Shown in pieces: positions 9,102-29,107 of a DNA stretch of 29,195 nucleotides. The notes under the pieces were generated by a model, which saw nothing but the letters and a program-made list of their open reading frames with translations, had not been told where the DNA came from and searched no databases. Source of the stretch: an uncultured bacterium (GTDB lineage Bacteria > Krumholzibacteriota > Krumholzibacteriia > WVZY01 > JAKEHA01). The position numbers were made by a program, and so were the translations under genes. The stretch lies in assembly GCA_964589805.1 (NCBI GenBank), contig CAZPUV010000003.1:1-29195 (forward strand), given 5' to 3'. Each line of letters starts with the position of its first letter. Position 1 is the stretch's first letter.

Positions 9102-9112
9102 CGGACGTCGTC

Positions 9113-10069
9113 TCACACGGGGCGTCGGCGTTTCTTCGTCTTCCTGGCGGCCGGGCCGGCGCACAGCATCGCCGCTCCCACGACCGCGGCGTCGTTTCCC
9201 AGTCGCGAGGGTTCGATGACGGCCGCGGCCACGTTTTCCTTGAACGCGTGGGCGCGCACGGCGCGGCGCACGTGCGGCTCGAACAGGTCGAAGGCGCCCG
9301 CGATTCCGCCGGCCAGCACCACCACCGACGGGTTCAGCACGTCGAGCACCGACGCCACCGCGATGCCCAGGTGTTCACCGGCCTCGCGAACCGCCTCGCG
9401 GCAGGCGGCGTTCCCGCCCCGCGCGGCGTCGAGCACCGCGCGCGCGGTCGCCGGGTAGACGGGCCGCGCGGCACGCGAGCGGCGGCGAATCACCCGCCGG
9501 GCCGCGGCCACGATGCCGTAGGACCCCGCGTATGCCTCGAGACAGCCGCGGGAGCCGCAGCGGCAGCGGGGTCCCCCGGGATTCACCGTCATGTGTCCGA
9601 TCTCCCCGCCGAAACCGGAAACGCCCTGCACCACCCGGCCGCCGGCGACGATCCCGCCGCCGACCCCCGTGCCCATCGTGATGGCGACCAGATCGCGTCC
9701 GCGCGCGCCGCGCACAAACGACTCGCCGAACGCCGCACAGGTGGCGTCGTTGGCGACCATCACCGGGGCGGCGAAATGCCGGCGCGCGAGTCTGGCGAGG
9801 GACGCACCCTTCCACCGCGCCAGGTTCGGCGAGGCGCGCAGCACACCCGTGCGCGCGTCGACGAGACCGGCGCAACCGATCCCGACGCCCTCCACACCCG
9901 TCGCTCCGGCGAGCGTGCGCGCGGCATCGTGGATGCGGCGGAACGCCGCCGCCGGTCCGTCGCCGGCGCGGGTTTCGATCACCCCGCGCGCGAGCACGCG
10001 CCCGCTGGCCGAGACGGCCGCGACCTTGATGTTCGTCCCCCCGATATCGACGCCGAGATATGTTCTCAA
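9113..10069 (-). CDS. ROK family sugar kinase (glucokinase-like), 318 aa
   Basis: GVDIGGT, NDA, GTGVGGG and the zinc motif GHMT...CRCGSRGCLEAY. TTG start at 10069 overlaps the folC stop (TTGA). Confidence 0.92.
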   Translation of the reverse strand: MRTYLGVDIGGTNIKVAAVSASGRVLARGVIETRAGDGPAAAFRRIHDAARTLAGATGVEGVGIGCAGLVDARTGVLRASPNLARWKGASLARLARRHFAAPVMVANDATCAAFGESFVRGARGRDLVAITMGTGVGGGIVAGGRVVQGVSGFGGEIGHMTVNPGGPRCRCGSRGCLEAYAGSYGIVAAARRVIRRRSRAARPVYPATARAVLDAARGGNAACREAVREAGEHLGIAVASVLDVLNPSVVVLAGGIAGAFDLFEPHVRRAVRAHAFKENVAAAVIEPSRLGNDAAVVGAAMLCAGPAARKTKKRRRPV

Positions 10070-14819: not shown

Positions 14820-16364
14820 CTACCGGGGCGTGAGGGTGAGACAGGGGAGAACCATCTCCTCGAGGGAGACCCCGCCGTGCTGAAAACTCCCCTCGTACGC
14901 CTTCTCGTAGTCGCGGAAGTTGGTCGGATAGACGAAGTAGAAGTACTCCTTGGCGAAGAGGTACGACTTCGTGCGCGACTCGGCGGGCAGTCTGAACTCG
15001 CCCGGCGTCCGCGTGATGATGGCCTGGCGCTCGTCGCACTTGAGGTTGTCACCGAACTTGTAACGCAGGTTGGTGGATGTGTCCCTGCGCCCGTGCACGA
15101 GACTCGCCTTGCGGCCGAGAATCGAGCCGTGGTCGGTGGTCAGGACCACCTTGATTCCGGCCCGGGCCAGATCGGCGAGGATTTCGCGCAGCACCGAGTG
15201 CGAGAACCATGAATGCATGAGCGAACGAAACGACGACTCGTCCGGCAGGAGCTGCTGGAGGATCTCGGACTGGTTCCGGCCGTGGGTGAGGATGTCGACG
15301 AAGTTGAACACCATGGCCACGAAGGAGGAATTCATCAGGCTCGCCACGCGCTTGCGTGTATCCGCCGCCTCGGCCGCGTTGAAGATCTTGACGTACCGGA
15401 GCTTGCTCTCGTCCAGCCGCATCCCGCGCATCTGTTCGCCGAGGAAGAAGGACTCGTACTTGTTCTTGCTCGTCTCTTCGTTGCTGCGTTCGAGCCACTT
15501 TTCGGGATGGCGCCGCGCGATCTCGTCCGGGAACAGGCCGCTGAAGATCGCGTTGCGCGAATAGGGCGTGGCCGTGGGCAGGATGGAGCAGTAGAAGTCC
15601 CAGCGCACGTCGAATGACTCCGTCAGGAACTCCTCGATCACCATCCACTGATCCAGGCGCACGCAGTCGACCAGTATGAAGAACAGCTTCTCGCCGGCCA
15701 GGAGGTGTGGCGCGATGAACTTCGGAAACAGGTCCACGCTCATGGGCGGGCGCTTGTCCGACGCCACCCAGTCGCGGTAGTTGTTCTCGACGAACCGTCC
15801 GAACTGCTGCGCGTGGTTGAGCCGCTGGTCCTCGTGCGTCGACTCGAGACCGCTGCGGCGGTACTGGTCGAACTCCCGGTCCCAGGCGCACATGCGCCGG
15901 TGGATGCGGAGCCAGGCGTCCCACGTGTCTTCCCGGGCCAGAGCGCTGATCTCGTTGAACTCGCGGATGTAGTCCGGCGGGAAGCGCGCTTCCTGGATGC
16001 GGGGCGCGTCGAGGATGCGTTTGCACGCGGAGTAGATCTGGAGCGGGCTGACGGGCTTGAGGAGGTAGTCGTCGATCTTCATGCCGAACGCGTTGTCCAT
16101 CAGGCGTTCTTCTTCGTTCTTGGTGATCATGACCACCGGGAGGGCCGGGTCGGTCTCCTTGATCTCCACGAGCGTATCGAGCCCGCCCCGGCCGGGCATG
16201 GACTCGTCCAGGAGCATGATGTCGAACTTGCCCTGCCGGACCAGCGTCAGCGCGTCGGCGCCGTTGGTGGCCGTCTGGACCTGGTAGCCCTTGTCGCGGA
16301 GGAAGAGGACGTGCGACTTGAGGAGTTCGATCTCGTCATCGACCCATAGAATTCGTTTGCTCAC
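14820..16364 (-). CDS. porX: PorX-like bifunctional response regulator: receiver domain plus PglZ/alkaline-phosphatase-superfamily domain, 514 aa
   Basis: ILWVDDEIELLK, LLDESMPG, VMITKNEEE, LVDCVRLDQW, LPTATPYSRNAIFSG, TTDHG, TNLRYK and FQHGGVSLEEM. GTG start at 16364. Confidence 0.85.
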   Translation of the reverse strand: MSKRILWVDDEIELLKSHVLFLRDKGYQVQTATNGADALTLVRQGKFDIMLLDESMPGRGGLDTLVEIKETDPALPVVMITKNEEERLMDNAFGMKIDDYLLKPVSPLQIYSACKRILDAPRIQEARFPPDYIREFNEISALAREDTWDAWLRIHRRMCAWDREFDQYRRSGLESTHEDQRLNHAQQFGRFVENNYRDWVASDKRPPMSVDLFPKFIAPHLLAGEKLFFILVDCVRLDQWMVIEEFLTESFDVRWDFYCSILPTATPYSRNAIFSGLFPDEIARRHPEKWLERSNEETSKNKYESFFLGEQMRGMRLDESKLRYVKIFNAAEAADTRKRVASLMNSSFVAMVFNFVDILTHGRNQSEILQQLLPDESSFRSLMHSWFSHSVLREILADLARAGIKVVLTTDHGSILGRKASLVHGRRDTSTNLRYKFGDNLKCDERQAIITRTPGEFRLPAESRTKSYLFAKEYFYFVYPTNFRDYEKAYEGSFQHGGVSLEEMVLPCLTLTPR

Positions 16365-16370
16365 GCTGGA

Positions 16371-16400
16371 AGTATACGCACCGGCCCGAGGGACTAGCAA
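16371..16400 (-). promoter_or_regulatory. Sigma70-type promoter of porX-like gene, probably leaderless
   Basis: TTGCTA-N18-TATACT, ending 6 nt before GTG 16364, with no Shine-Dalgarno. Confidence 0.7.
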
Positions 16401-16409
16401 GGGCGCCGA

Positions 16410-17654
16410 TCAGCCCGCGGGAAACCGCACCACGAACGTCGTCCCCCTGCCGGGACGCGAGTCCGAGAGCCGGATCGTGCCGCCGTGGTACTCGTGCACG
16501 ATACGGCGCGCGAGCGCGAGGCCGATTCCCCAGCCCCGCCGCTTGGTACTGAAGCCGGGCCGGAAGACCTGGTCCCGCAGCGCCCCCGGAATGCCGCGGC
16601 CGGTGTCGTGCACCGACACCTCGACGTGGTTTCCGTCACGGCGGGCGCGGATGTCGATGCTCCCTCCTCCCTCGCCGAGCGCGTCGACCGCGTTCTTGAT
16701 GAGATTCTCGAACACCCACTCCAGGAGTTCCTCGTTGCCGCGTACGCGCAGTTGCGGTTCGCACGAGAGCGAGATCGTGGAGTCCGCCTTGAGGCTCGGG
16801 AGACGCTTCTCGAAGTAGGCGACGGTGCGCGCGAGCACCGCTTCGAGCGCCACGTCGGCGCGCTCCGGGGTCGCGCCGATCTTGCTGAAACGCTCCGTGA
16901 CCTTGTTGAGGCGCGCGAGATCCACCTCCATCTCGTCCACCTGGGCGCGGATGTCGTCATAACCGCGTTCCATGGCGCGATCCCGGATCACCTGCACCCA
17001 GCCCAGCATGGCGGACAGCGGTGTGCCGAGCTGGTGGGCGGTCTCCTTGGCGAGCCCCACCCAGATCGATCGCTGTTCGCTCAACTTGAGATAGCGCAGC
17101 CCCTGGATCGCCACCGCCATGAACACGAGGAAGATGCCGAGCAGCACGAACGGCATGTAGCGTAGCTCGCGCTGCAGCGGCGACGGCCCGTAGTGGACCC
17201 AGCCGGATGGTTCGTTGGTGCCCACCACGCGGATCGGAATGGGCGCGTTCTCCCGGTCGAACTCGCGGTAGAGCTCCACGAGCCGGCGCAGCTTCTCGGT
17301 CGGGGGATCGTTGAGGTCCATGTTCATCAGCATCTCCCAGTCCTCTTCCGTGCGCTCGCCAACCGGAACGCGGTTCCACAGGACCGGACGCCCGTCGAAG
17401 ACGGTGATGATGATCGGAAGGTCGGTCTCGTTCACGATCGTGCGCAGGTCCGCGAGGCTCCCGTCGTCGGCAACCTCGAAGAGGACGTTGGCTATGTAGC
17501 GGGAGAAGAGCCGGCTGGTGGTTTCGGAATTCTCGCGCATGCGCGCGATCAGATGGTTCGAGTAGATCAGCATGGCCAGGAAAAGCCCGGCGACGCCGAG
17601 GAACAGGTACCCCTTCAGCCAGAATCGAATGTTGCCGCCGGGTGCCAGGGCCAT
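16410..17654 (-). CDS. Membrane sensor histidine kinase (two TM helices), possibly PorY-like, 414 aa
   Basis: TM segments YLFLGVAGLFLAMLIY and FVLLGIFLVFMAVAI. H-box AKETAHQLGTPLS, N-box ENLIKNAVDA, G1 DTGRGI, F/G2 GFSTKRRGWGIGL. ATG at 17654. Confidence 0.9.
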   Translation of the reverse strand: MALAPGGNIRFWLKGYLFLGVAGLFLAMLIYSNHLIARMRENSETTSRLFSRYIANVLFEVADDGSLADLRTIVNETDLPIIITVFDGRPVLWNRVPVGERTEEDWEMLMNMDLNDPPTEKLRRLVELYREFDRENAPIPIRVVGTNEPSGWVHYGPSPLQRELRYMPFVLLGIFLVFMAVAIQGLRYLKLSEQRSIWVGLAKETAHQLGTPLSAMLGWVQVIRDRAMERGYDDIRAQVDEMEVDLARLNKVTERFSKIGATPERADVALEAVLARTVAYFEKRLPSLKADSTISLSCEPQLRVRGNEELLEWVFENLIKNAVDALGEGGGSIDIRARRDGNHVEVSVHDTGRGIPGALRDQVFRPGFSTKRRGWGIGLALARRIVHEYHGGTIRLSDSRPGRGTTFVVRFPAG

Positions 17655-17659
17655 GCCCG

Positions 17660-18925
17660 TCAGCCGAGGTACTCCCTGCCTCGCATGTAGGGCCGGAGCC
17701 GCGCGGGGATGCGCACCCGGCCGGTGGGTGTCTGGTGGATCTCGAGCAGTGACGCCACCACGCGCGGGAGCGCCAGACCGGAGCCATTGAGGGTGTGCAC
17801 GAACTTGTGCTTGTCGTCGCCCTTCTTGAGACGGATTCCCGCCCGCCGCGCCTGGAAATCCTCGAAGTTGCTGCACGACGAGACCTCGAGCCACTTGTCG
17901 ACGCCCGGAGCGAACGTCTCGAGGTCATAGCACTTCGCAGCGGCGAAGCCGAGGTCACCGGCGCACAACGCCACCACTCGATAGGGCAGTTCGAGGGCGT
18001 CGAGCACCGCGGTCGCGTCGGCGACGAGCGATTCGAGTTCGTCGTACGACGTGTCCGGGTGGACGAACTTCACCATTTCGACCTTGTCGAACTGGTGCAC
18101 GCGCAGGAGTCCGCGCGTGTCCGCCCCGTGGCTTCCGGCCTCGCGGCGAAAACAGGGGCTGTAGGCGGTGTACCGGATCGGCAGCCGTTCGCGCTCCACC
18201 ACCGACTCGCGATGCAGATTCGTGACCGGCACCTCGGCGGTCGGGACGAGGAAGAGGTCGTCGACGCCGCAGTGATACATGTCCTCCTCGTACTTGGGAA
18301 GCTGGCCGGTGCCCGTCATCGAATCGCGGTGAACCAGGTAGGGGACGAGCACCTCTTCATAGCCCTGTTCGGCGTGGAGGTCGAGCATCAGGTTGACGAG
18401 CGCGCGGCACAGGAGTGCCCCATCGCCGCGAAACACGACGAAGCCCCGTCCCGAAACGGTGCGGCCGCCCTCGAGATCGAGTACACCCAGCTTCTCGCCG
18501 ATCTCCCAGTGGGCGAGCACGTCTTCGAACGGCTTCTCCGCCTTTCCCACGGTCTTCACGACCACGTTCGCGGTGGCGTCCGCGCCGTCGGGCGTCGACT
18601 CGTGGGGCAGGTTGGGGACGGTGAGCAGGAGCCCGTCGAGCGTTTCTTCGATCTCCTTGTTGCACGCCTCGAGTTCCTTGATGCGCGCGGACGTCTCCTT
18701 CATGGCGGCGTGCAGGGACGCGATGTCCTCGCCCGCCTGCTTGCGGCGTCCGATCTCCTCGGACGCGACATTGCGCTGGTGCTTGAGTTCCTCGGCGCGC
18801 TGGAGGTTGGAGACATGCTCGGCGTCCAGCGCGATCAGGCGCTCCACGTCGAAGGCGGCATTCCGGCGGCGAAGGCCGCGGCGGAGCCGTTCGGGATTCT
18901 CGCGGATGAGACGACGGTCGATCAC
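17660..18925 (-). CDS. serS: Serine--tRNA ligase
   Basis: N-terminal coiled coil, LVPTAEVP, CFRREAGS, RVHQFDKVE, EVSSCSN and HTLNGSGLA. Confidence 0.98.
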   Translation of the reverse strand: MIDRRLIRENPERLRRGLRRRNAAFDVERLIALDAEHVSNLQRAEELKHQRNVASEEIGRRKQAGEDIASLHAAMKETSARIKELEACNKEIEETLDGLLLTVPNLPHESTPDGADATANVVVKTVGKAEKPFEDVLAHWEIGEKLGVLDLEGGRTVSGRGFVVFRGDGALLCRALVNLMLDLHAEQGYEEVLVPYLVHRDSMTGTGQLPKYEEDMYHCGVDDLFLVPTAEVPVTNLHRESVVERERLPIRYTAYSPCFRREAGSHGADTRGLLRVHQFDKVEMVKFVHPDTSYDELESLVADATAVLDALELPYRVVALCAGDLGFAAAKCYDLETFAPGVDKWLEVSSCSNFEDFQARRAGIRLKKGDDKHKFVHTLNGSGLALPRVVASLLEIHQTPTGRVRIPARLRPYMRGREYLG

Positions 18926-18929
18926 GGAA

Positions 18930-19853
18930 TCACGAGAGACGGAACTCCTCGATCACCTCGCGTCCGCCGGCTTCGAGGATTTCGCTGGCGAGCGTCCGGC
19001 CCAGATCCTCCTCGTTGCCGAGGGAACCCTTGACCATGCACTGGATCTTTTCGCTGCCGTCCGGATACGCCACCATGCCCTCCAGCTCGAGGGCCTTGCC
19101 CTCGATGCTCCCGAGCACCGCGACGGGAGCGGCCTGCTCGACATTCAGATGTTCGAGGAAGGCCCATTCGGCCCGGAGCATGCTGTGCGTGGCGGGATCG
19201 TTGATTGCCTGGACGGCGTCGCGGAACTGCGAGTCGCTCGAACGGATCAGGACGGCCAGTGCTCCCTGTCCCGCGGGCGGGATGCACACCTGGTTCGTGA
19301 GCAGTTCGGCCACGAATTCCTGCTTGTTCATGCGCTCCACGTCGGCCGCGGCCACGACCGCGCAATCGACCTTCGACGCGCGCACCTTCTGCAGGATCGA
19401 GTCCACGCTGCCCTGTGCGCGTACGATCCGGAGGTCCGGGCGGTAGTAGCGCAGCTGCGCCTCCCGGCTCGAGGAGCACGTGGCCAGGGCCGCGTTGTCG
19501 TGCAGTTCGTCGAGGATGCACCCGTCGGTGGAAATGAGCGCATCGCAGGGCGTGATGCGCGACGTGAGCGCGCCGATGGTGAGTCCGGATGGCATCCGCG
19601 TGGGAAGCGCGGAGGCTTCGAGGACGAGCACGTCACACTCGCCGCTCAACAGCTGACTCATCAACAGCGCGTTGCGTTCAGGTGTGGAGGGGAGGGTTCT
19701 GGACTGCCTGAGGTCTTCCGACTCGAGCGACGGGACGAACTCCACCGGAAGCTTGCCACCGTGCACGGCGAGCAGTCGGACTACTTCGTCGAGCTGTACT
19801 CGCGACAGTAGATCGACGTCGCTTGCTATCCGACACGTCGTTTTGGTCGTCAC
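18930..19853 (-). CDS. HemC (porphobilinogen deaminase)-fold protein lacking catalytic and cofactor-binding residues, about 307 aa
   Basis: Colinear with HemC along its whole length (RIA, PCDALIS, QL...RPDL, PPAGQGAL, LRAE, PDGS, LASEILEAGGREVI). HSMKD is replaced by LEASA and GGCQVP by VEQAAP. GTG 19853 is preferred because GTG 19922 falls inside the promoter. Confidence 0.85.
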   Translation of the reverse strand: MTTKTTCRIASDVDLLSRVQLDEVVRLLAVHGGKLPVEFVPSLESEDLRQSRTLPSTPERNALLMSQLLSGECDVLVLEASALPTRMPSGLTIGALTSRITPCDALISTDGCILDELHDNAALATCSSSREAQLRYYRPDLRIVRAQGSVDSILQKVRASKVDCAVVAAADVERMNKQEFVAELLTNQVCIPPAGQGALAVLIRSSDSQFRDAVQAINDPATHSMLRAEWAFLEHLNVEQAAPVAVLGSIEGKALELEGMVAYPDGSEKIQCMVKGSLGNEEDLGRTLASEILEAGGREVIEEFRLS

Positions 19854-19912
19854 TCCAGGGCCCGTCCGTCCGGATGAGTGTGCCGTCGCGTATTCCGCAA
19901 ATCGTGGGCGAA

Positions 19913-19941
19913 ACGATAGCACAGCCCCCGGGGAGCGTCAA
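19913..19941 (-). promoter_or_regulatory. Sigma70-type promoter (extended -10) for hemC-like, serS and the histidine kinase
   Basis: TTGACG-N17-TATCGT with TG at the extended position. Confidence 0.7.
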
Positions 19942-19946
19942 CGGAG

Positions 19947-21086
19947 TTACCGGCCGACGGACGTGCGGCGTTCGGTGAGATTGTTGGCGAAGGTGGACTG
20001 GAACGGAATGGCGGTCGGCATCGCGTGATGCGAGGTTCCGGCCGATGCCTCGTGTCCCTCCACCATCATGCGCAGGAAGGAAACGAACGCGACCGTTACG
20101 AAGCCAAGGCCCACGATGACGGGCAGCATCCAGTCCATCGCAGCCCCGATACCGAGCAGCGAGAAGAACGCCTGCATACCGTAGAGGACGACGAGCGTCT
20201 GCCTGGGCGACAGACCCGCGTCGCGCAGCACGTGGTGCATGTGCAGATTGTCCGCCCCGAACAGGGGCGAACGCAGAACGACCCGGCGGGCGATGGCGAG
20301 CCCGGTATCGAGCAGCGGGACACCCAGCACGAAGCACACCGCGGCGAACATGTTCACCGTGGAAACGCGCATGGTGACGAGACACGCCGTCACCGCCAGC
20401 ACGAGGCCGAGGAACATGCTTCCGGTGTCGCCCATGTAGATGCGGCCCGGTGGGAAGTTGAACACCAGGAATCCAAGGCACGCGCCGCCCAGCGCGAGAG
20501 AGAGCACGACCACTTCGGGCTGGCCGGTCATGGAGCCGATCACCGCGAACGCCCCGGCCGAGAGAAGCGCCACGCCGGCCGCGAGTCCGTCGTGACCATC
20601 GACCAGATTCACTGAGCTCAGCATCCCCACCACGAAGACCAGCGATACCAGCGCGAGCATCACGAACGACGTGTCGAACACCCACATGCCGGTGAAGAGG
20701 CGGAATCCGATCGCCACGATCGATGCGGCTGCGAGCACCTGGAACGCGAGTTTGCTGCGGACGGCCAGGTTGCGCATGTCGTCGACGAGTCCGAGCACCA
20801 CGATGAGCATGGCGGCGGGAATCGCCCGCGCAACGAGCGCCGCGCCCGTACTCACTCCGGGCCTTCCCAGCCAGATCGCCACGGCGGCGAAGACGCCCAG
20901 GAACAGGGCGATTCCGCCGAGGTGCGGAATAGAATCTGAACGCGGCCGGGAGCCCCGCCCGTTGGGCTTGTCGCCGAGCCGCCAGCGGATGGCGAAGGAG
21001 CGGACGACCGGCGTCACAATGACGCTCACTGCAAACGCCGTTGCAAACACCACGCTGTTACCAAGCCACGTCGAGATGCCGGTCAA
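19947..21086 (-). CDS. wecA: Undecaprenyl-phosphate alpha-N-acetylglucosaminyl 1-phosphate transferase (WecA/TagO, glycosyltransferase family 4)
   Basis: IPHLGG, GLVDD, NLVDGHDGLA, FNFPP, YMGDTGS and HMHH; multi-TM. TTG start with GGAGG RBS. Confidence 0.88.
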   Translation of the reverse strand: MTGISTWLGNSVVFATAFAVSVIVTPVVRSFAIRWRLGDKPNGRGSRPRSDSIPHLGGIALFLGVFAAVAIWLGRPGVSTGAALVARAIPAAMLIVVLGLVDDMRNLAVRSKLAFQVLAAASIVAIGFRLFTGMWVFDTSFVMLALVSLVFVVGMLSSVNLVDGHDGLAAGVALLSAGAFAVIGSMTGQPEVVVLSLALGGACLGFLVFNFPPGRIYMGDTGSMFLGLVLAVTACLVTMRVSTVNMFAAVCFVLGVPLLDTGLAIARRVVLRSPLFGADNLHMHHVLRDAGLSPRQTLVVLYGMQAFFSLLGIGAAMDWMLPVIVGLGFVTVAFVSFLRMMVEGHEASAGTSHHAMPTAIPFQSTFANNLTERRTSVGR

Positions 21087-21154
21087 CGGAGAGCCTCCTG
21101 GTGCAAAACACGCCGGTGGGTCTTCCCCGCCCCCGGCGCCGCGGCGCGCCGATC

Positions 21155-21184
21155 AGGGTAGTCTCGAGCCGGACGGAGTGTCAA
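21155..21184 (-). promoter_or_regulatory. Sigma70-type promoter of wecA
   Basis: TTGACA-N18-TACCCT. Confidence 0.65.
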
Positions 21185-21200
21185 GGCGATTGGTCCCATC

Positions 21201-22715
21201 TTAGTTCTTCATTCTCAACAAGTTGCCGACCAGGGGCCGGACTTCGCCGGGCCGGATCACCCGGAACGCCAGCACGAGCAGCCCGTAGAGGATCACGTGG
21301 ACCGCCGCCAGAACCACCGTCCAGAGGCTGGAATCCAACCCGGCCCGGCCGATAACCGTCCAGAGGATGAGGGCCACCAGCGTGCCAGCAAGAAGCGTGC
21401 GAATCCCGGTGCCGATCGCCCGGGCGCTGACCCGCACCCCGAATACGCCGAACACCTCGCGCATCCCGAACACGAGCAGGAGGCCGTACGAAATGATGGT
21501 CGAGAGAATGGCCCCGCGCGAGTGCATGCTGGGGATGAGGATCACGTTCAGCGCGAAGTTCATCACCGCCGCTCCCGCCGTGAGCCAGGCGTAGGTCCGG
21601 ATCCGCTCCGCCGCGAGCAGCGCCGGCAACACGAGCGCCCCCAGGCTCCGGATCACGACCACCCACGCGAACATCGCCATCAACTCCCCCGCGTAGACGT
21701 ACTGGTCGGAGTAGACCAGCGAGAGCAGCGGCACCGCCATCGCGACGAACACGGAACCGAAGAGCACCCCGGCCACCAGCGACAGCTTCAGAGAGCGCCG
21801 GATCAGGCTCGCACACTCGGCGATGTCGCCGCGCGAGAATCGCGACGCCAGCGCGGGTCGCAGGGTCGTGACGAGCGCGAAGGCGGGGAAGAGCGACACC
21901 TCCATCACCGCGCGCGCGATGGAGTACTGCCCCACTTCCTCGAGCGGGTCGAAGTAGCCCAGCACGAGCTTGTCCATCTGCGAATATACCGCCACCGACG
22001 CGCTGCTCACCGCGAGCGGAATGCTCATCGCGAGCAGCCGGCGACGGATCGACGCACGCTCGCCCTCGTCGGGCTCGGCCGCGGGGAGGTAGCGCCGCAG
22101 GAGCAGCCAGAAGGCCGCCATGCCCACCAGCCACGCGGCGATGTAGCCGAGCAGTATGGCGACGACCCCCATCCCCATCGCCACGACCCCGGCGGTTGCG
22201 ACGACGCGCGCCGAGAGCATGGCGGCGCGCACGCGCGAAACCGTGGCGTGCCGGTTGAGGCCGATCAGAAACTGCTCCTGGAACTCGTAGACGCTCGCAC
22301 AGAAGATGATGCCCGCGGATATCCGAACCGGCCACAGCAGCGTGTCGTTGTTGAACCAGCCCGCGATGGAGGGCGCCAGAAACCAGGTGAGCAGCGACGT
22401 CGGGAGCGCGAGCGCCAGTCGCAGATTGGAGCCGGTGCGAAACAGCGTGCGCAGCACACCCGGCCTTGCCACGCCGTACTCGCTCGCCAGACGCGACGCG
22501 CCCAGGTCGAGGCCGAGTTTGGCGATGATCAGCACCTGGGTGGCGAAGGCCATGGCCCACGAAACGGAGCCCCAGACGGTGGGACCGGAGAAACGCGCGA
22601 TGACCCAGGAAACGGCGAACGCCGCGACGACGGGAAGGAGCGAGAGGGCCAGGCTCCACTTGAAGCTCTGCCCCACCGCGGACTGCTGAAACGACCAGTT
22701 GTTACGGCTGCTCAT
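21201..22715 (-). CDS. wzx: Wzx-type polysaccharide flippase (MOP superfamily)
   Basis: 504 aa with many TM helices. SQMDKLVLGYF...VGQYSIA and ALNVILIP motifs. Sits in the sugar cluster. Confidence 0.85.
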   Translation of the reverse strand: MSSRNNWSFQQSAVGQSFKWSLALSLLPVVAAFAVSWVIARFSGPTVWGSVSWAMAFATQVLIIAKLGLDLGASRLASEYGVARPGVLRTLFRTGSNLRLALALPTSLLTWFLAPSIAGWFNNDTLLWPVRISAGIIFCASVYEFQEQFLIGLNRHATVSRVRAAMLSARVVATAGVVAMGMGVVAILLGYIAAWLVGMAAFWLLLRRYLPAAEPDEGERASIRRRLLAMSIPLAVSSASVAVYSQMDKLVLGYFDPLEEVGQYSIARAVMEVSLFPAFALVTTLRPALASRFSRGDIAECASLIRRSLKLSLVAGVLFGSVFVAMAVPLLSLVYSDQYVYAGELMAMFAWVVVIRSLGALVLPALLAAERIRTYAWLTAGAAVMNFALNVILIPSMHSRGAILSTIISYGLLLVFGMREVFGVFGVRVSARAIGTGIRTLLAGTLVALILWTVIGRAGLDSSLWTVVLAAVHVILYGLLVLAFRVIRPGEVRPLVGNLLRMKN

Positions 22716-23808
22716 CGAAAAAACGGACGATCACCTGCGCGATTCGCGGGGCCGCTTTTCCGTCCCAGAGGTCCGGAATCCGAGCGTCCTTGACGCCTTC
22801 GCGAAGCACGCCCTGTGCCTCGGCGACAATACGCGCGGTGTCGGTCCCGACCAGACGATTCGTCCCGACCGTCAGGGTCACGGGGCGTTCCGTGTTGTCA
22901 CGGATCGTCAGGCAGGGGATTCCGAGAGCAGTCGTTTCTTCCTGGATACCTCCCGAATCGGTGAGAACAATGGAACTATACTTCATGAGTTTGAGGAAGT
23001 CCAGATATCCGACCGGGTCGATCAGCCGCATACCGGCGCCCCGGACCTCGTACCGGGCCTTCGCGATTCCCTGCCGCGTGCGGGGATGCACCGGGAAGAC
23101 CAGGGGACACTCACGGGCGATCTCGGAAAGCCCGTCGAGAAGGCGCGTTAGCTGCACGATGTCGTCCACGTTGGACGGACGGTGCAGGGTCACCAGCCCG
23201 TAGCGGTGCGGGGTGAGCCCGAGGGCACGCAGGATGGCGGATCTTTCGGCCGCATTCTCGAAGGCGCGGAGTGTGTCGATCATGACGTTGCCCACGAAGT
23301 GGATCCTCCCGTCGTCGATCCCCTCGCGGACCAGGTTGTCCCGGGCTTCCGGTGACGTCGTGAAGAGGAGGACGCTCACCGCGTCGGTGAGCGACCGGTT
23401 GACTTCCTCCGGCATCGTGCGGTCGAAACTGCGCAACCCCGCCTCGACGTGCGCCACGGGGACGTCGCGTTTCGACGCCACCAGCGCGCAGGCGAGCGTG
23501 GAGTTGACGTCTCCAACCACGATGACGAGGTCCGGGTCCGCGGCCACGAGCACGGGTTCGAACGCGAGCATCACCCGCGCGGTCTGCTCTGTGTGCGAAC
23601 CGGAGCCGACGCCGAGGTGCGAGTCGGGCCGCGGGAGATTCAGATCGTCGAAGAATATCTTCGACATGTTCTCGTCGTAGTGCTGCCCGGTGTGAACGAG
23701 TGTGAGGTTGAAGCGCCCGGTGGCTTCGAGCGCGCGCCACACCGGTGCCACTTTCATGAAGTTCGGCCGCGCCGCGGCCACGAGGAGAATGCGGGGCTTT
23801 CGCGCCAT
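22702..23808 (-). CDS. wecB: UDP-N-acetylglucosamine 2-epimerase (non-hydrolysing)
   Basis: ARPNFMK, HTGQHY, VVGDVNS, HVEAGLRS, TLHRPSN and TDSGGIQEE. Confidence 0.95.
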   Translation of the reverse strand: MARKPRILLVAAARPNFMKVAPVWRALEATGRFNLTLVHTGQHYDENMSKIFFDDLNLPRPDSHLGVGSGSHTEQTARVMLAFEPVLVAADPDLVIVVGDVNSTLACALVASKRDVPVAHVEAGLRSFDRTMPEEVNRSLTDAVSVLLFTTSPEARDNLVREGIDDGRIHFVGNVMIDTLRAFENAAERSAILRALGLTPHRYGLVTLHRPSNVDDIVQLTRLLDGLSEIARECPLVFPVHPRTRQGIAKARYEVRGAGMRLIDPVGYLDFLKLMKYSSIVLTDSGGIQEETTALGIPCLTIRDNTERPVTLTVGTNRLVGTDTARIVAEAQGVLREGVKDARIPDLWDGKAAPRIAQVIVRFFDEQP

Positions 23809-23811
23809 CGC

Positions 23812-24843
23812 CTATGACCGCGTCTTCCCTTTCGCCAGACGCGCGCCGTAGTGTTTCTCGTAGTACTCGCGGAAGGCGCCGCTCTTCACGCGTTCCCACC
23901 AACCGCGGTTCTCGACGTACCAGCGCACCGTCTGCTCCATCGCGTCCGCGAACCCGGTGCGCGGCGCCCATCCCAGCGCGCGCAACTTGTCCGCCGCGAG
24001 CTTGTACATCCGGTCGTGTCCCTTGCGGTCCTCGATGAAGACGATCTTCGACTTCGTGGAACCCACGTGCTTCAGGATCAACTCCGCGATGCGGAGGTTC
24101 GGCTGCGAGTTGCCCACCGCGATGTTGTAGATCTCCCCCTCGTTGCCCTTCTCGGCGACGAGCGCGATGGCGCGGCAGTTGTCGTCGACGTAGAGCCAGT
24201 CCCGCATGTGCATGCCGTCGCCATAGAGCGGGAGATCCTTCCCCTCCATGGCGTTGGTGATGAACAGGGGGATGAACTTCTCCACGTGCTGCCGGGGCCC
24301 GAAGTTGTTGGAGCTGCGCGTGATCACGAGCGGGACCCCGTAGGTGTTCGCGAACGCGAGACACATGAGGTCGCCGCCGCACTTGCTGGCGCTGTACGGA
24401 TTCCCCGGCCGCAACGGCGATTCCTCGGTGAATCCCTCGCCCCCGCTGGAGCCGTAGACCTCGTCCGTCGAAATCTGGACGTAGCGCTTCACCTTCAACT
24501 CGCGCGCGAAATTGAGCAGATTGTAGGTTCCCTGGATGTCGGTCTCGATGAAACCCGCGGCTTCGTCGATGGACCGGTCCACGTGCGTTTCCGCGGCGAA
24601 GTTGAACACCACCTCGGCGCCGTCCATGGTTTCGCGCACGACCTTCGGGTCGCAGATGTTCCCCTTCACGAAGCGAACGCGTCCGCTGTCGACGAGATCG
24701 CCGATGTTCTCCATGTTGCCGGCGTAGGTGAGCGCGTCGAGAACGGTGATGGCGCACGCCGGTTGCTCGCGCGCGATCATCCGGACGAAATTCGATCCAA
24801 TGAACCCGGCGCCGCCGGTGACGAGGATGGAAGCAAACGCCAC
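23812..24843 (-). CDS. rmlB: dTDP-glucose 4,6-dehydratase, 343 aa
   Basis: VTGGAGFIGSN, AAETHVDRSI, ISTDEVYG, YSASK and RDWLYV. GTG start at 24843. Confidence 0.93.
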   Translation of the reverse strand: MAFASILVTGGAGFIGSNFVRMIAREQPACAITVLDALTYAGNMENIGDLVDSGRVRFVKGNICDPKVVRETMDGAEVVFNFAAETHVDRSIDEAAGFIETDIQGTYNLLNFARELKVKRYVQISTDEVYGSSGGEGFTEESPLRPGNPYSASKCGGDLMCLAFANTYGVPLVITRSSNNFGPRQHVEKFIPLFITNAMEGKDLPLYGDGMHMRDWLYVDDNCRAIALVAEKGNEGEIYNIAVGNSQPNLRIAELILKHVGSTKSKIVFIEDRKGHDRMYKLAADKLRALGWAPRTGFADAMEQTVRWYVENRGWWERVKSGAFREYYEKHYGARLAKGKTRS

Positions 24844-24844
24844 G

Positions 24845-25291
24845 TCAGGCCTCTCCCAGGGCTTCGAGGTCCGCCAGATCACGAGCGCGCCCCGTGGTGC
24901 GCTTGTTCACGACGAGATCGCTCCGGCCGATGAACGCGACGGGTACCCCGTCGTAGTCCCCCTCGACGCGTCCCGCGAACGCCTGCTCCCACGACACACC
25001 GGTCAGGGCGGTCAGAAAATCCACGCGAACCGGCGGCACGCCCAGTTGGACCACGCGGTCCGGACTTGTGAAATCATCCGACGACAGGCCGAGCGCTCCA
25101 AACCCGAACGCCTCGAGCGCCGTCAGAATACGCGTCGCGTTGGCGGGCGTCGGACGAACGAGGATGTCGAGGTCTCCCGTGTTGCGAGGCACGCCGTGGA
25201 ATGCGAGTGCGTAGGCACCCACGACGATGAACTCAACGCCGTTCTCGTTCAACGACGCGAGCAACTCTTTGAAGTCTTGCTGCATTTCCAT
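24845..25291 (-). CDS. Minimal nucleotidyltransferase (DUF6036-like), 148 aa
   Basis: MEMQQDFKELL...VVGAYALAFHGVPRNTGDLDILV...RVDF...K...GRARDLADLEAL, with a G[GA]-x9-T-x-DxD Pol-beta-type signature. Confidence 0.85.
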   Translation of the reverse strand: MEMQQDFKELLASLNENGVEFIVVGAYALAFHGVPRNTGDLDILVRPTPANATRILTALEAFGFGALGLSSDDFTSPDRVVQLGVPPVRVDFLTALTGVSWEQAFAGRVEGDYDGVPVAFIGRSDLVVNKRTTGRARDLADLEALGEA

Positions 25292-25421
25292 AGTGCTGCC
25301 GCCGGTAGGTTTCCACGGCTTCGATACGCTCGCGCGGTGTGCGCGACATCCAGTACGCGAGGTCCTCGGCATCCCCGGATCTGTCCGTCAGGCTTCGTTT
25401 CTTGACTACTCGTTGAATCAA
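25233..25421 (-). CDS. Small 62-aa protein, putative partner (antitoxin- or toxin-like) of the nucleotidyltransferase
   Basis: DLAYWMSRTPRERIEAVETYRRQHYG...RLQRVARVV resembles small proteins I recall upstream of DUF6036 genes. It exactly fills the gap after the rmlC stop. TTG start. Confidence 0.7.
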   Translation of the reverse strand: MIQRVVKKRSLTDRSGDAEDLAYWMSRTPRERIEAVETYRRQHYGNAARLQRVARVVERERR

Positions 25422-25424
25422 GCC

Positions 25425-25886
25425 TCAGCCGTCCTTGCGGTTCCAGTCGTAGGGGATGTCGTTGTCGTGCGGATCGACGCGGAACTCGTCGGGCTCCTTG
25501 TAGTTGTAGGGCTCGGTCGGGATGTTGACGAGGTAGCCCGGGGTGGTGCCGATTCCCTTCATCCCGTGGAGCACGAAGGGCGGGATCACGACCAGGATCG
25601 GGTTCTTCTCGCCCATGAAGAACTCGTTCACCAGGCCCTTCGTGGTCGACTTCTCGCGGCCATCATACAGCACCACCTTGAGCATGCCGTGCACGCACAC
25701 GAAGTGGTCGGTCTGCTTCTTGTGGTAGTGCCACCCCTTGACGACCCCGGGGTAGGCGACGGTGAGGTAGGCCTGCCCGAACTTCTGATAGAACTCGTCG
25801 TCGGCGCGGAGCATCTCCATGAGAAACCCGCGCTCGTCGGGAATGACCTTGAGCTGCTTGACCCGAACGCCGTCGATGAGTTTCAC
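25425..25886 (-). CDS. rmlC: dTDP-4-dehydrorhamnose 3,5-epimerase family cupin (RmlC-like), 153 aa
   Basis: IPDERGFLMEM, VKGWHYH and VLHG. GTG 25886 has a GGGAGG RBS and overlaps the ugd stop (GTGA). Confidence 0.85.
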   Translation of the reverse strand: MKLIDGVRVKQLKVIPDERGFLMEMLRADDEFYQKFGQAYLTVAYPGVVKGWHYHKKQTDHFVCVHGMLKVVLYDGREKSTTKGLVNEFFMGEKNPILVVIPPFVLHGMKGIGTTPGYLVNIPTEPYNYKEPDEFRVDPHDNDIPYDWNRKDG

Positions 25887-27196
25887 TTTCGACCCCTCCC
25901 GAACGACTCGTACACGAATCCATAGCCTTCTACCCGATCCCGGACATAGACGTTCCGGCAATCCACGAAGACGTTGCCGCGCATGAGTTCCTTGAGCCGC
26001 GGAAAATCGAGTTCCCGGAATTCGTTCCACTCCGTCACCAGCATCAGCGCATCGCACCCCTCGGCGGTCTGGTAGGCGCTCTTGCAGTACTCGACCGGTG
26101 CCTTCACGGTTCGCCGGAAACCGTCCATCGCCACCGGGTCGAACACGCGCACGCGAGCGCCCTTCGCGAGGAGGTCGTGAACCAGACGATTGGCCGGCGC
26201 CTCGCGCAGGTCGTCCGTGTTGGGCTTGAAGGCGAGCCCCAGCACCCCGACCGTCTTCCCGCGCAGATCCCCCACCGCGCCCGCGAGTTTGTCCATGGCG
26301 CGTCCGGTGAGGCCCTGGTTGGTCGCGTGGGCGGCGGTGATCAGGGGTGCCGCGAAACCGTTCTCGTTGGCCACGTGGATCAGCGACGATACGTCCTTGG
26401 GCAGGCACGATCCGCCGTATCCGATTCCTGCGTGCAGGAATTTCTTCCCGATGCGGCCGTCGAGGCCCATGCCCCTCGCCACCTCGTCCACGTTGGCACC
26501 AACCAGTTCGCAGATCCGCGCCATCTCGTTGATGAAGGAGATTTTCGTGGCGAGAAATGCATTCGACGCGTACTTGATCATCTCGGCGCTCTCCAGCGAC
26601 GTGGAGACGATCGGCGTCTCCAGCAGATAGAGCGGCCGGTACACCCGCTTCATCATCTCGCGCGCCCGGTCCGATTCGGCGCCGACGACGACTCGGTCGG
26701 GACGCATGAAGTCCCCCACCGCGGATCCCTCGCGCAGGAACTCCGGGTTGGAGACGATGTCGAACTCAGCGTTCTTCGGCTTGTGCTCGGCGATCACGGC
26801 CGCCATCCTGCGCGCGGTGCCGGCGGGCGCGGTGCTCTTCTGGACCACCACGGTGTAGCCGGAGAGGTGCTTCGCGACGTCCCTCGCCGCGTCGAAGACG
26901 GACCCGAGGTCGGTGCCGCCGTCCCCGCGGGAGGGCGTGCCGACGGCGATGAAGACGACCTCCGCTTCGTGCACCGCGACCGCGAGGTCGGTGGTGAAGA
27001 ACAGCCGTTCGTCCGCCACGTTCTTGGCGACGACTTCCTTGAGTCCCGGTTCGTAGATGGGGATCTCGCCTCGACCCAGTGCCTCGATCCGCGAGGCGTC
27101 GATGTCCACGCACGTCACCGTGTGCCCGAAGTCGGCAAAGCATGCGCCGCTCACCAGCCCCACGTAACCGGTTCCGATCATGCAGATTCTCGTCAT
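25883..27196 (-). CDS. ugd: UDP-glucose/GDP-mannose 6-dehydrogenase family protein
   Basis: IGTGYVGL, AVGTP, KSTAP, SNPEFLREG, KYASNAFLATKISF, GYGGSCLPKD and GLAFKPNTDDLRE. Confidence 0.93.
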   Translation of the reverse strand: MTRICMIGTGYVGLVSGACFADFGHTVTCVDIDASRIEALGRGEIPIYEPGLKEVVAKNVADERLFFTTDLAVAVHEAEVVFIAVGTPSRGDGGTDLGSVFDAARDVAKHLSGYTVVVQKSTAPAGTARRMAAVIAEHKPKNAEFDIVSNPEFLREGSAVGDFMRPDRVVVGAESDRAREMMKRVYRPLYLLETPIVSTSLESAEMIKYASNAFLATKISFINEMARICELVGANVDEVARGMGLDGRIGKKFLHAGIGYGGSCLPKDVSSLIHVANENGFAAPLITAAHATNQGLTGRAMDKLAGAVGDLRGKTVGVLGLAFKPNTDDLREAPANRLVHDLLAKGARVRVFDPVAMDGFRRTVKAPVEYCKSAYQTAEGCDALMLVTEWNEFRELDFPRLKELMRGNVFVDCRNVYVRDRVEGYGFVYESFGRGRK

Positions 27197-28134
27197 GCGT
27201 CTTCCTTGTCCCAGTACGCGAGCAATGATTCGAGCATCTCCCGGACCGAGTGCCGGGCTCTCCAGCCGGTGTGCGCCGTTATCTTGGCGGGATCACCGCG
27301 AAGTTCCGGCATATCCACCGGGCGCATCCGTTCCGCGTCGACGCGGATCGTGAGATTCACACCGGCGATTTCACACAGATCTCGAAGCATATCACCAATA
27401 CGATACGAATTCCCCGTGCATACGTTGTAGGTCTCCCCGGTGCGACCCTTCTTGATGAGCACCACGTATGCGTCGCACACGTCGCGGATGTCGAGGAAAT
27501 CGCGCCGGACCTCCAGATTGCCCACCTCGATGACGTCGCTGCGCTCGCCGCGGCGAATCGCCGCCACCTGCCGGGCGAAACTGGGCAGCACATACGTGTC
27601 CGTCTGGCCGGGTCCCGTATGGTTGAAACTCCGCGTCATCACCGCGTCGACTTCGTAGAGCCTCGCGAACATGCGCCCGTAGTGGTTCTGGATCGCCTTG
27701 GCGAGCGCGTAGGGACTCTCCGGATTCGCCGGCGCCGATTCCGCGAGCGGCAGCTGTGATGCGTCCACGGTGCCGTACTCCTCCGCGGACCCCACCAGCA
27801 GGACCCGCGCGCGCGAGCCGGTCTTGCGCAGGTGATTCAGGATGTTCAGCGCGGGCCGCGTGTTGTCGGTCAGGGTCCGCGCCGGGTCGTCGAACGACTT
27901 GCGCACGCTGGCCTGCGCGGCCAGGTGCACGATGCATGCCGGAGAGACCTCGGCAATCATGTTCTCGACGAAGCCCTCGTCGGCGAGGTCCCCGGTAAGG
28001 CACTTCCTGCCGGGAAACGGGCCGTCGCCTTCGATCCGATCGGCGCCCCAGACCTCGTGGCCGGCCGCGACCAGCCTTTCCACGAGCGAGCGCCCGACGA
28101 ATCCGTTACACCCTGTGACGAGGGCCTTTTCCAT
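27193..28134 (-). CDS. NAD-dependent SDR, GDP-mannose 4,6-dehydratase / GDP-4-keto-6-deoxy-mannose reductase (Rmd)-like
   Basis: VTGCNGFVG, HLAAQASV, GSAEEYG, PYALAK, FNHTGPGQ, GNLEVRRDF and RMRPVD. Confidence 0.85.
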   Translation of the reverse strand: MEKALVTGCNGFVGRSLVERLVAAGHEVWGADRIEGDGPFPGRKCLTGDLADEGFVENMIAEVSPACIVHLAAQASVRKSFDDPARTLTDNTRPALNILNHLRKTGSRARVLLVGSAEEYGTVDASQLPLAESAPANPESPYALAKAIQNHYGRMFARLYEVDAVMTRSFNHTGPGQTDTYVLPSFARQVAAIRRGERSDVIEVGNLEVRRDFLDIRDVCDAYVVLIKKGRTGETYNVCTGNSYRIGDMLRDLCEIAGVNLTIRVDAERMRPVDMPELRGDPAKITAHTGWRARHSVREMLESLLAYWDKEDA

Positions 28135-28156
28135 GTTCGGCCGTGCCCGGGACTGA

Positions 28157-29107
28157 CTACCGGCTGCGCCAGTACTCCAGCGTGTCGCGCAGCGTCTTCT
28201 CGAACGGGATCTCCGGTTTCCAACCCGTGTCCGCGCGGAACTTCGAACAATCGCCCAGGAGCAGCATCACGTCCGACGGCCGAAGCCGGCTCTTGTCCGT
28301 CCTGACCTCGATCTTCTCGTCGGTCAGCGCGAGCAGCTGGTCCAGCATCTCGCGGATCGACCAGCATTTCTCCTGGCAGATGTTGTACACCTCTCCCGCC
28401 TTGCCCTTCTCGAGCGACAGCCAGTAGGCCTTCACCATGTCGCGGACATCGGTGAAGTCGCGTTTGGCGTCCAGGTTGCCGACGTGCAACACGGGTTTGC
28501 GAACGCCGCGCTCGATATCGACGATCTGCCTGGCGAAATCGCTCATCACGAATACCGGCGCGCGGCGCGGGCCCTCGTGGTTGAAGCCGCGCGTGCGCAC
28601 GATGTGCATGCCGTAGCTCATGAAGTACTGGTAGCCCAGCAGATCCTGTCCCACCTTGCTCACCCCGTACGGCGAGAGCGGCCGCAGCGGGTTGGTCTCC
28701 TTGATGGGCACCTCGTTCTCGTGGACCATGCCGTATTCCTCGCTCGAACACGCGAGCTGGATCCGGCACTTGAGGCCGATCTTGCGGACCGCCTCGAAGA
28801 TGTTGAGCTGGCCGATGACATTGGTGGTGAGGCTCTCGGCGGGCGCGTGCCACGACGTGGGCACGAAGCTCTGCGCGGCCAGGTGGAAGATGTAGTCGGG
28901 CTTGACCGTCTCGATCACGTCACGCGTCGAGGAGGCGTCGCGCAGGTCGCACTCGTGGAGCGCGATCTTGCCGTCCAGGTGTTCGATGTTCTCGGTGCGG
29001 CTCCGCCAGCGGATGATCCCGTGGACCTCCAGGTCGCTGCGGGTGAGACAGTAGTCGGCGAGGTGGCTGCCGGTGAAGCCGGTGACTCCGGTGATGAGAA
29101 CGCGCAA
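28157..29107 (-). CDS. NAD-dependent SDR, GDP-mannose 4,6-dehydratase / Rmd-like
   Basis: ITGVTGFTG, FHLAAQSFV, CSSEEYG, PYGVSK, FNHEGPRR, GNLDAKRDF and RLRPSDV. TTG start with AAGGA RBS. Confidence 0.88.
   Translation of the reverse strand: MRVLITGVTGFTGSHLADYCLTRSDLEVHGIIRWRSRTENIEHLDGKIALHECDLRDASSTRDVIETVKPDYIFHLAAQSFVPTSWHAPAESLTTNVIGQLNIFEAVRKIGLKCRIQLACSSEEYGMVHENEVPIKETNPLRPLSPYGVSKVGQDLLGYQYFMSYGMHIVRTRGFNHEGPRRAPVFVMSDFARQIVDIERGVRKPVLHVGNLDAKRDFTDVRDMVKAYWLSLEKGKAGEVYNICQEKCWSIREMLDQLLALTDEKIEVRTDKSRLRPSDVMLLLGDCSKFRADTGWKPEIPFEKTLRDTLEYWRSR

Follow-up and report, generated by a model that had tools for sequence, protein, structure and literature searches.

Why would a bacterium keep a hydroxymethylbilane synthase from which the residues that make hydroxymethylbilane have gone? 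The question is raised by a gene on the minus strand (18930..19853) of a 29,195-nucleotide stretch of contig CAZPUV010000003.1 (assembly GCA_964589805.1), from an uncultured bacterium of the phylum Krumholzibacteriota; the whole stretch is referred to here as the window. The initial annotation had read this gene as a catalytically dead HemC (porphobilinogen deaminase) that retains its fold and is kept for another function. We use H as the name for the HemC-like lineage, lacking Cys242 and Asp84, to which the window gene belongs. That reading is borne out by four lines of evidence: the fold is modelled with a predicted local distance difference test (pLDDT) score of 91, the losses are shared by 101 orthologues, the ratio of non-synonymous to synonymous substitution rates (dN/dS) is low, and a canonical hemC lies elsewhere in the same genome. 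As selection on H is strong even in genomes in which no haem pathway was found, we regard it as very likely that H is not a hydroxymethylbilane synthase (HMBS) and has been selected for another role.

The H protein and its former active site

The coding sequence of the window gene runs from a GTG at 19853 to a TGA at 18932-18930 and specifies 307 residues, as indicated by the open reading frame (ORF) list, the conserved N-terminus, Pfam and NCBIfam matches and the AlphaFold model. The longest open frame around it (19922-18930, minus strand) is intact, with no stop or frameshift, in line with the original description. The start was set to GTG 19853 by the N-terminal sequence (M/V)TTKTTCRI(A/G)SDxD, which is conserved in an alignment of 39 diverse orthologues; the 23 codons 5' of this GTG show no conservation at the protein level. 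Nearly all orthologues are 305-308 residues long.

Both HemC domain families match the product, PF01379 at 2e-33 (116 bits, cut-off 22) and PF03900 at 1.7e-9 (38 bits, cut-off 26), and the structural motifs GQG and RPDL are kept. TIGR00212 is passed only barely, with 165.7 bits against a cut-off of 164; for the canonical copy in this genome the score is 332 bits. An AlphaFold2 model built on the orthologue alignment has a pLDDT of 91.1 and a predicted template modelling score (pTM) of 0.89. When this model was compared with the PDB using Foldseek, the best 32 matches were all HemC, with template modelling (TM) scores of 0.84-0.90, and AFDB clusters concurred; ranks 33-50 were occupied by type II periplasmic-binding-protein-like structures at TM scores of 0.36-0.44. 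No other enzyme family resembling H was found in Pfam, NCBIfam, the PDB, AFDB or Atlas, which gave HemC or nothing useful. Language-model look-alikes outside the HemC families reached 0.87, to archaeal clusters, which is under the useful range, and these were set aside.

Neither a signal peptide nor a membrane segment was found in H (maximum 19-residue hydropathy 1.2), nor was a lipobox, and no fusion to another domain was seen. A 761-residue frame in one genome (G030) was considered as a fusion with a neighbour, but tblastn places H, serS and the GT4 gene in different frames, and we read it as a GC-rich artefact. The window protein has an isoelectric point (pI) of 4.8 and a net charge of -15, and the clade formed by families f1 and f2 is uniformly acidic (pI 4.6-5.3), with a median net charge of -16 as against +1 in canonical representatives. 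From its sequence and model, H is predicted to encode a strongly acidic protein that is soluble, resides in the cytoplasm and adopts the three-domain HemC fold.

The window protein was aligned with HMMER to Vibrio HemC (5h6o) and with MAFFT to E. coli HemC from NC_000913.3; residue numbers are those of the E. coli enzyme. Every substitution listed in the initial annotation was reproduced by these alignments, which restored no equivalent of Asp84 or Cys242. At the N-terminus RIATRQS has become RIASDVD (R11D, S13D); here the codons for D12-V13-D14 (19812..19820, minus strand) lie at E. coli R11 and S13, and two invariant Asp residues now stand where the substrate site had its acetate-binding pair. 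VLEASALP stands in place of VHSMKDVP (19602..19625, minus strand), with the loss of Ser81, Lys83 and the catalytic Asp84 (HSMKDVP to LEASALP; S81E, K83S, D84A). GTSSLRR is changed to ATCSSSR (R131S, with R132 retained) and LRGNVGTRL to AQGSVDSIL (R149Q, N151S, R155I). Further along the chain, AEWAFLEHLNVEQAAP is found in place of AERAMNTRLEGGCQVP (19125..19172, minus strand), so that AERAM..EGGCQVP reads AEWAF..NVEQAAP, and R232 is replaced by Trp and Cys242 by Gln. Phe62 of the lid loop is Arg. Among the residues retained are Gln19, Arg132, Arg176 and the GQG motif (197-199).

The porphobilinogen site of HemC consists of Arg11, Ser13, Gln19, Ser81, Asp84, Arg149, Asn151 and Arg155, corresponding to human residues 26, 28, 34, 96, 99, 167, 169 and 173 (PMC7959689). 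Seven of these eight are replaced in the window protein (by D, D, E, A, Q, S and I), leaving Gln19 alone. In the E. coli enzyme, the Asp84Ala and Asp84Asn variants make no hydroxymethylbilane, and Arg11His and Arg11Leu retain less than 4% activity (PMC7959689). Cys242 is the carrier of the dipyrromethane cofactor, Asp84 the catalytic residue, and Arg149 and Arg155 take part in chain elongation (PMC8561815). Since H has no Cys242, it offers no thiol for the dipyrromethane cofactor, and H is predicted no longer to make hydroxymethylbilane.

Lineage, selection and the haem pathway

A word-indexed search returned 260 relatives of the window gene. The best 120 are 55-87% identical to it; their source label is often hydroxymethylbilane synthase, and they come from metagenome-assembled genomes (MAGs) called Candidatus Krumholzibacteria or Latescibacteria. 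The losses seen in the window protein, which the initial annotation had proposed to look for in orthologues, are common to the 101 full-length orthologues in which residues were counted. Position 11 is Asp in all 101, and position 232 is Trp in 98. Position 83 is occupied by Ala, Ser, Val or Thr, position 155 by Leu, Ile, Val or Met, and position 84 by any residue except Asp. Position 242 takes Gly, Pro, Ser, Ala, Glu and others, with Cys in none. R132 never varies, and 86 of the sequences retain R131.

Few known enzymes are as uniform as HemC. For comparison we used 89 canonical representatives, selected for carrying 12 key catalytic residues. Nine positions invariant in this canonical set are fixed to a new residue in the window's clade (R11D, S13D, A16S, F62R, A78L, S81D, N151S, G173D and R232W); at position 13, for example, Ser at a frequency of 1.00 in canonical HemC has given way to an invariant Asp. 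The losses are not a chance pattern, and constraint differs as a whole. At 21 pyrrole-contact positions the mean entropy of the canonical set, so selected, is 0.15 bits, against 2.11 elsewhere, whereas in the window's clade the corresponding values are 1.02 and 1.00 bits, the most variable of the contact positions being 84 (3.2 bits) and 242 (2.7 bits). The ratio of clade to canonical entropy is lowest in domain 3, which contains many clade-invariant Glu residues, and relative constraint also rises towards the N-terminal strand and the segment 186-200. Mean column identity over the 39 diverse orthologues is 74%.

Evolutionary rates point in the same direction. Pairwise dN/dS values for H, calculated by the Nei-Gojobori method (NG86) over 34 f1 and f2 loci in which its reading frame is intact, are 0.06-0.2 for the closest pairs, compared with 0.08-0.2 for the adjacent serS and higher values for the adjacent GT4 gene. 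These values are far below 1 and comparable with those of serS, so that the dN/dS near 1 which the initial annotation had taken as the mark of simple decay is not seen; on these values and the intact frames at orthologous loci, a pseudogene was rejected. A member of the window's clade is present in all 34 f1 and f2 genomes except one that is 68% complete. Judged by codon substitution, H is under purifying selection as a protein.

The same evidence bears on the view that H is a decaying relic, or still an HMBS with an unusual active site. In its favour are the pass of TIGR00212 (165.7 against 164), the name of hydroxymethylbilane synthase given to many orthologues by their sources, and the loss of H from one genus. 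Against it are the dN/dS of 0.06-0.2, the intact frames in 34 loci and the conserved N-terminus, promoter and Shine-Dalgarno sequence; the absence of Cys242, Asp84, Arg11, Arg149 and Arg155, when single changes of Asp84 or Arg11 abolish or nearly abolish activity; and the presence of H where no hemB was found to supply porphobilinogen. We consider this view highly improbable.

Trees of 81-83 sequences were built with IQ-TREE in a quick mode. The window's clade (Shimodaira-Hasegawa approximate likelihood-ratio test, SH-aLRT, 99) has a second dead clade (100) as its sister, and both together with P0134 form a group of 22 rows (95). A branch with an SH-aLRT of 99 separates all 20 genes known from this genomic position from 47 canonical HemCs, the canonical side including every canonical copy from Krumholzibacteriota. 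H as a recent duplicate of the phylum's canonical hemC was rejected, as those copies nest in the canonical clade, apart from H. The canonical HemCs of Krumholzibacteriota are spread over four or more separate places among the canonical sequences of the tree, a scatter that hints at several acquisitions or at poor resolution.

In a scan of one genome per species, members of the clade (at least 46% identity) were found almost only in MAGs titled Krumholzibacteriia, Latescibacteria/-ota or unclassified, with one titled Chitinivibrionia; a HemC-like match is present in 189 of the 201 genomes of the phylum. From tree and distribution, H would be an old paralogue lineage confined to Krumholzibacteriota. 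Among the nearest matches outside the phylum are full-length ones of 30-32% identity in Chthonomonadaceae MAGs (Armatimonadota; L113, L114, L122, L128 and others).

The genome that contains the window also carries a canonical hemC, which was found on contig C34 between hemA and hemB. It is fused to hemD (L001 1471-3207, plus strand), and the 578-residue product has every catalytic residue. At the H locus itself the picture is different: as the initial annotation had stated, no hem genes were found in the 29-kb window, and hemA, hemB and hemD are absent from 47 H loci of seven families and the window (422 kb). A relic of a hem operon at this position is for that reason unsupported, though an ancient deletion of the other genes may have taken place.

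Among 41 relatives, hemB (PF00490) occurs in 24, where it tracks the presence of a second, canonical HemC match. Five genomes of 92-97% completeness (G001, G002, G013, G020 and G030), the first of them a single 3.2-Mb contig, gave no match for hemA, hemB or canonical hemC, and H is present in all five. These genomes look like haem auxotrophs, judging by gene content, and each encodes 3-4 multihaem cytochrome (PF13435) domains or genes, which implies a need for external haem. H is equally frequent in genomes with and without the haem pathway. Its retention in genomes that lack matches to hemA, hemB and canonical hemC indicates a function independent of endogenous tetrapyrrole synthesis. Within one genus, the haem pathway is present in some species and was not found in others.

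The locus and its expression signals

H sits at the 3' end of a cluster (about 19947-29107) that encodes UDP-sugar epimerases and a dehydrogenase, WecB, a flippase and, as its last gene, a WecA-like GT4. The GT4 gene (19947..21086, minus strand; PF00953 at 7e-34) lies directly upstream of H and specifies a polyprenyl-phosphate sugar-phosphate transferase of the WecA/MraY type. On the other side, serS, the gene for seryl-tRNA synthetase (SerRS), was placed at 17660..18925 on the minus strand from its ORF and sequence, and starts 4 nt past the stop codon of H. It is followed by genes for a membrane histidine kinase (16410-17657, minus strand) and a response regulator with a PglZ (alkaline-phosphatase-like) output domain (14820-16400, minus strand). 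The order NAD-epimerase/dehydratase, UDP-GlcNAc 2-epimerase, Wzx-type flippase, GT4, H, serS, histidine kinase and PglZ response regulator is found in 34 of 34 f1 and f2 loci. A UDP-glucose/ManNAc dehydrogenase and two more epimerases are encoded further upstream in the window. No transporter or DNA-binding domain was found near H in the window.

Comparison across families separates the constant neighbours of H from the usual ones. The order GT4-H-serS, complete in f1 and f2, occurs also in f5 and f8, and H and serS are adjacent in f1, f2, f5, f6 and f8. The f5 genome G038 has a 302-residue H in the same context, and G039 (f6) has UGDH, H and serS in succession. In f7 (G040, G051) the flippase gene is followed by GT4 and then by H, which overlaps the GT4 stop codon, and in f3 (G036, G048) the order is epimerase-UGDH-DegT aminotransferase-H; in both families serS is on another contig. 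More distant relatives without the cysteine, identified by profile search, occupy the same context (P0133, in the 4.1-Mb record CP070727.1; P0129; P0134). A Cys-less HemC-like gene is thus found at the end of a sugar cluster in every family whose locus was read (f1, f2, f3, f5, f6, f7). Since serS is elsewhere in f3 and f7 and H is still at the sugar cluster, the constant neighbour across the six families is the sugar-nucleotide and glycan-initiation cluster, and serS is the usual, not the universal, gene downstream. The histidine kinase and PglZ response regulator pair directly after serS is conserved in f1, f2 and f5; the histidine kinase is absent from the f3 and f7 loci.

Two groups depart from this arrangement. 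None of the five genomes of genus g31, which include a two-contig assembly of 97% completeness, has a HemC-like match, and a gap of about 230 bp separates GT4 from serS, which we read as a clean deletion of H. Family f4 (G037) has a canonical-type HemC match only. Its SerRS is 39% identical to that of the window, as against 52-59% in the other families, and its serS (L042 7614-8885, plus strand) stands alone between genes on the opposite strand; this region may be a replacement of the native one.

Between the GT4 stop (19947) and the GTG at 19853 lies a promoter-like element (19913..19941, minus strand), consisting of TTGACG, a 17-nt spacer and the extended -10 sequence TGTGCTATCGT. The element, located by a consensus scan, is conserved in 20 of 20 f1 loci, although the intergenic stretch around it differs among loci in both length and sequence; a strict pattern was matched in 6 of 14 f2 loci. 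A Shine-Dalgarno-like sequence, GGACGGACGGG (19861..19871, minus strand), is situated 8-18 nt before the GTG start and is conserved as GGACGGA or GGGGGA in an alignment of 19-20 loci. No terminator-like site was found between H and serS in the window, and serS is probably co-transcribed with H. On these signals, H and serS appear in the window's family to form one unit, with H as its first gene and read from the conserved promoter in front of H. The leader was also considered as a regulatory RNA, and this was rejected: Rfam gave no match in the window, and the leader shows no conserved fold.

Elsewhere in the window, a 411-residue multihaem c-type cytochrome (3520-4755, minus strand; PF13435 Cytochrome_C554, with c7 and MtrC-like matches) is flanked by two large proteins without a Pfam match (333-2723 and 2751-3569). 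At 1213 residues, the LptD homologue at 5523-9164 (minus strand) is unusually long; it carries OstA, LptD_N and LptD_2 domains, pointing to an outer membrane with lipopolysaccharide transport in this lineage.

Possible functions and relation to known systems

If H is not an HMBS, what might it do? We give about even chances to its being a non-catalytic binding or adaptor protein, working by binding and not by catalysis. The initial annotation had suggested a ligand sensor or a scaffold, and each of the two would fit part of the evidence. A ligand site fits the window's order, in which the substrate site is rebuilt and fixed; a scaffold or adaptor fits the phylum as a whole, where conservation is seen in a domain-2 surface patch but not in the cleft. 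Outside the structural GQG region, the cleft has no side chain that is conserved across 10 orthologues from six families, which are about 30% identical. Conservation in H without a counterpart in canonical HemC is seen at D115, E116, E173, Q178, E183, L64 and L247, and by homology these residues would lie on domain 2, outside the cleft. Over the phylum, an acidic patch on domain 2 (D115, E116, E173, Q178, E183) may have taken over the constraint once placed on the cleft, and in the window's order domain 3 may have done so as well. Such an acidic surface could serve as an interface for a basic partner, with H acting as an adaptor or regulatory subunit. Candidate partners by position would be the cytoplasmic face of the WecA-like transferase, another protein of the glycan cluster, or SerRS. 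The H proteins of f7 (L063 6808-7932, minus strand) and f3 (L062 7574-8635, plus strand) carry a 50-70-residue, very acidic C-terminal tail with an aromatic end (...EEEDEESW, ...PPREDY), which might bind a partner.

In f1 and f2 the former pocket has a character of its own. Fixed cleft positions are D12, D14, Q20, R60, D/E79, S149, D151, R130 and R174. With the changes R11D, S13D, S81D/E, N151S and F62R, the retention of Q19, R132 and R176 and, in most members, of R131, the pocket contains three to five Asp residues and one new lid-loop Arg. A metal could bind there, or a small ligand that is cationic or zwitterionic. A transferrin- or FbpA-like Tyr-Tyr iron site was considered for the invariant YY 136-137 and set aside, because the pair is placed away from the cleft, at what we take from 1pda to be the far end of the helix that starts at R131/R132.

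Taken together, we tentatively propose that the HemC fold was recruited in Krumholzibacteriota as a non-catalytic adaptor or sensor, with a new acidic domain 2/3 surface for a partner and, in the window's order, a small cationic or zwitterionic ligand in the charge-reversed old pocket, coupling the initiation of envelope glycan synthesis to a cytoplasmic signal or to SerRS. A tie of H to the glycan cluster in particular is, taken alone, likewise no better than tentative. Several observations weigh against the binder or adaptor reading and the links drawn from it. The conserved promoter of f1 splits H from GT4 and joins it to serS, pointing away from the glycan genes, and genus g31 keeps both GT4 and serS without H, so that neither neighbour absolutely needs it. 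The whole 25-kb region is syntenic across the order, and the link to the glycan cluster may reflect no more than inherited gene order. Ten divergent sequences underlie the surface-patch argument, and a fixed, rebuilt pocket is also expected of a new enzyme activity. The tree is unrooted, was inferred by a quick method and has long branches, making it consistent with one old origin of H, not proof of it. Public runs containing the locus, low-depth metagenomes of unknown kind, provided no usable RNA evidence.

Three other functions were weighed. The order of genes in f1 and f2 would suit a factor linked to SerRS, in which H is a regulator, chaperone or channelling partner of the synthetase, or in which its translation is needed for expression of serS. 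The 4-nt spacing without a terminator-like site, the promoter upstream of H in 20 of 20 f1 loci and the H-serS adjacency in f1, f2, f5, f6 and f8 all argue for such a link, and f4, with a canonical HemC match only, has the divergent SerRS (39% identical) in a different context. However, in f3 and f7 H is found with the sugar cluster and serS on a different contig, the SerRS of genus g31, which lacks H, is ordinary (59% identical), and constraint across all 307 residues exceeds what translational coupling would need; we rate this explanation as rather unlikely. The position of H as the last gene of a sugar-nucleotide cluster, directly after DegT in f3 and overlapping the GT4 stop in f7, could also be that of a new enzyme on the old fold, whose rebuilt pocket catalyses another reaction; its substrate might be an intermediate from the neighbouring cluster, such as a nucleotide sugar or an amino sugar. 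There are precedents for such a conversion among other periplasmic-binding-protein-like folds, and most of the nine swaps fixed in the order line the old substrate site. Yet the pocket residues vary between the families of the phylum while the position of the gene stays, genus g31 keeps the cluster without H, and Pfam, NCBIfam, PDB, AFDB and Atlas yielded no other enzyme family that is similar. A new enzyme seems to us unlikely.

The third idea is that H still binds haem or a precursor non-covalently, as a cytoplasmic carrier, buffer or sensor that would be most useful where haem is salvaged for cytochromes. The ancestral fold provides a polypyrrole cleft, in which R132 and R176, both fixed, and R131, present in most orthologues, could hold two propionates; W230, C7 and C190 are new and invariant, and the five genomes without matches to hemA, hemB and canonical hemC each encode 3-4 multihaem cytochrome domains. 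But the cleft has gained four or five fixed Asp residues (D12, D14, D/E79, D151, D171) and lost K83, R149 and R155, which would make it hostile to a polyanionic pyrrole. In addition, the cleft residues, including W230 and both Cys, are not conserved in f3, f5, f6 and f7, and H is equally common with or without a haem pathway. This role strikes us as improbable.

If the adaptor or sensor reading of H is true, it would be the first described pseudoenzyme of the tetrapyrrole pathway, none having been found in the searchable papers, with a function unrelated to haem. A full-text literature search found no paper on a HemC pseudoenzyme, a non-catalytic HemC or a HemC-like paralogue, and no relevant content in papers that mention Krumholzibacteria. 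A lineage that keeps the fold across a phylum, drops the chemistry and persists without the pathway would mean that the HemC fold has a second use, and H would offer a clean natural case of the conversion of an enzyme into a binding protein. Annotation practice is affected as well. As H genes pass TIGR00212 by less than 2 bits and are widely labelled hydroxymethylbilane synthase, metabolic reconstructions from Krumholzibacteriota MAGs will wrongly credit haem-auxotrophic lineages with the HemC step.

Compared with the canonical enzyme (hydroxymethylbilane synthase or porphobilinogen deaminase, EC 2.5.1.61; PDB 1pda, 1ah5, 5h6o, 4mlv and 3ecr), H has the same three-domain architecture and length, is 27-29% identical to the bacterial and human enzymes, and keeps GQG (197-199), R101, D106, Q135, RPDL, AE (230-231), R132 and R176. 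Unlike HemC, it is without Cys242 and Asp84, has R11, S13, S81, K83, R149, N151 and R155 replaced, and carries Arg and not Phe at position 62. It is acidic, and its pyrrole site, taken as a whole, is no longer constrained. Whereas HemC belongs to the haem pathway, H stands outside any hem cluster, persists where no hemA or hemB was found, and branches apart from all canonical HemCs.

The other comparison is with type II periplasmic binding proteins and proteins descended from them in the cytoplasm, including LAO/HisJ, MetQ, tripartite ATP-independent periplasmic (TRAP) transporter substrate-binding proteins and YhfZ, as well as LysR effector domains. Domains 1 and 2 of H share with them the two-lobed, hinge-linked arrangement with a ligand cleft between the lobes. 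In the LAO/HisJ family, paired Asp and Arg residues in the pocket hold zwitterions. H differs from these proteins in its extra domain 3 and in having neither signal peptide nor lipobox, and its sequence similarity is to HemC only; the likeness is one of fold class, not of family.

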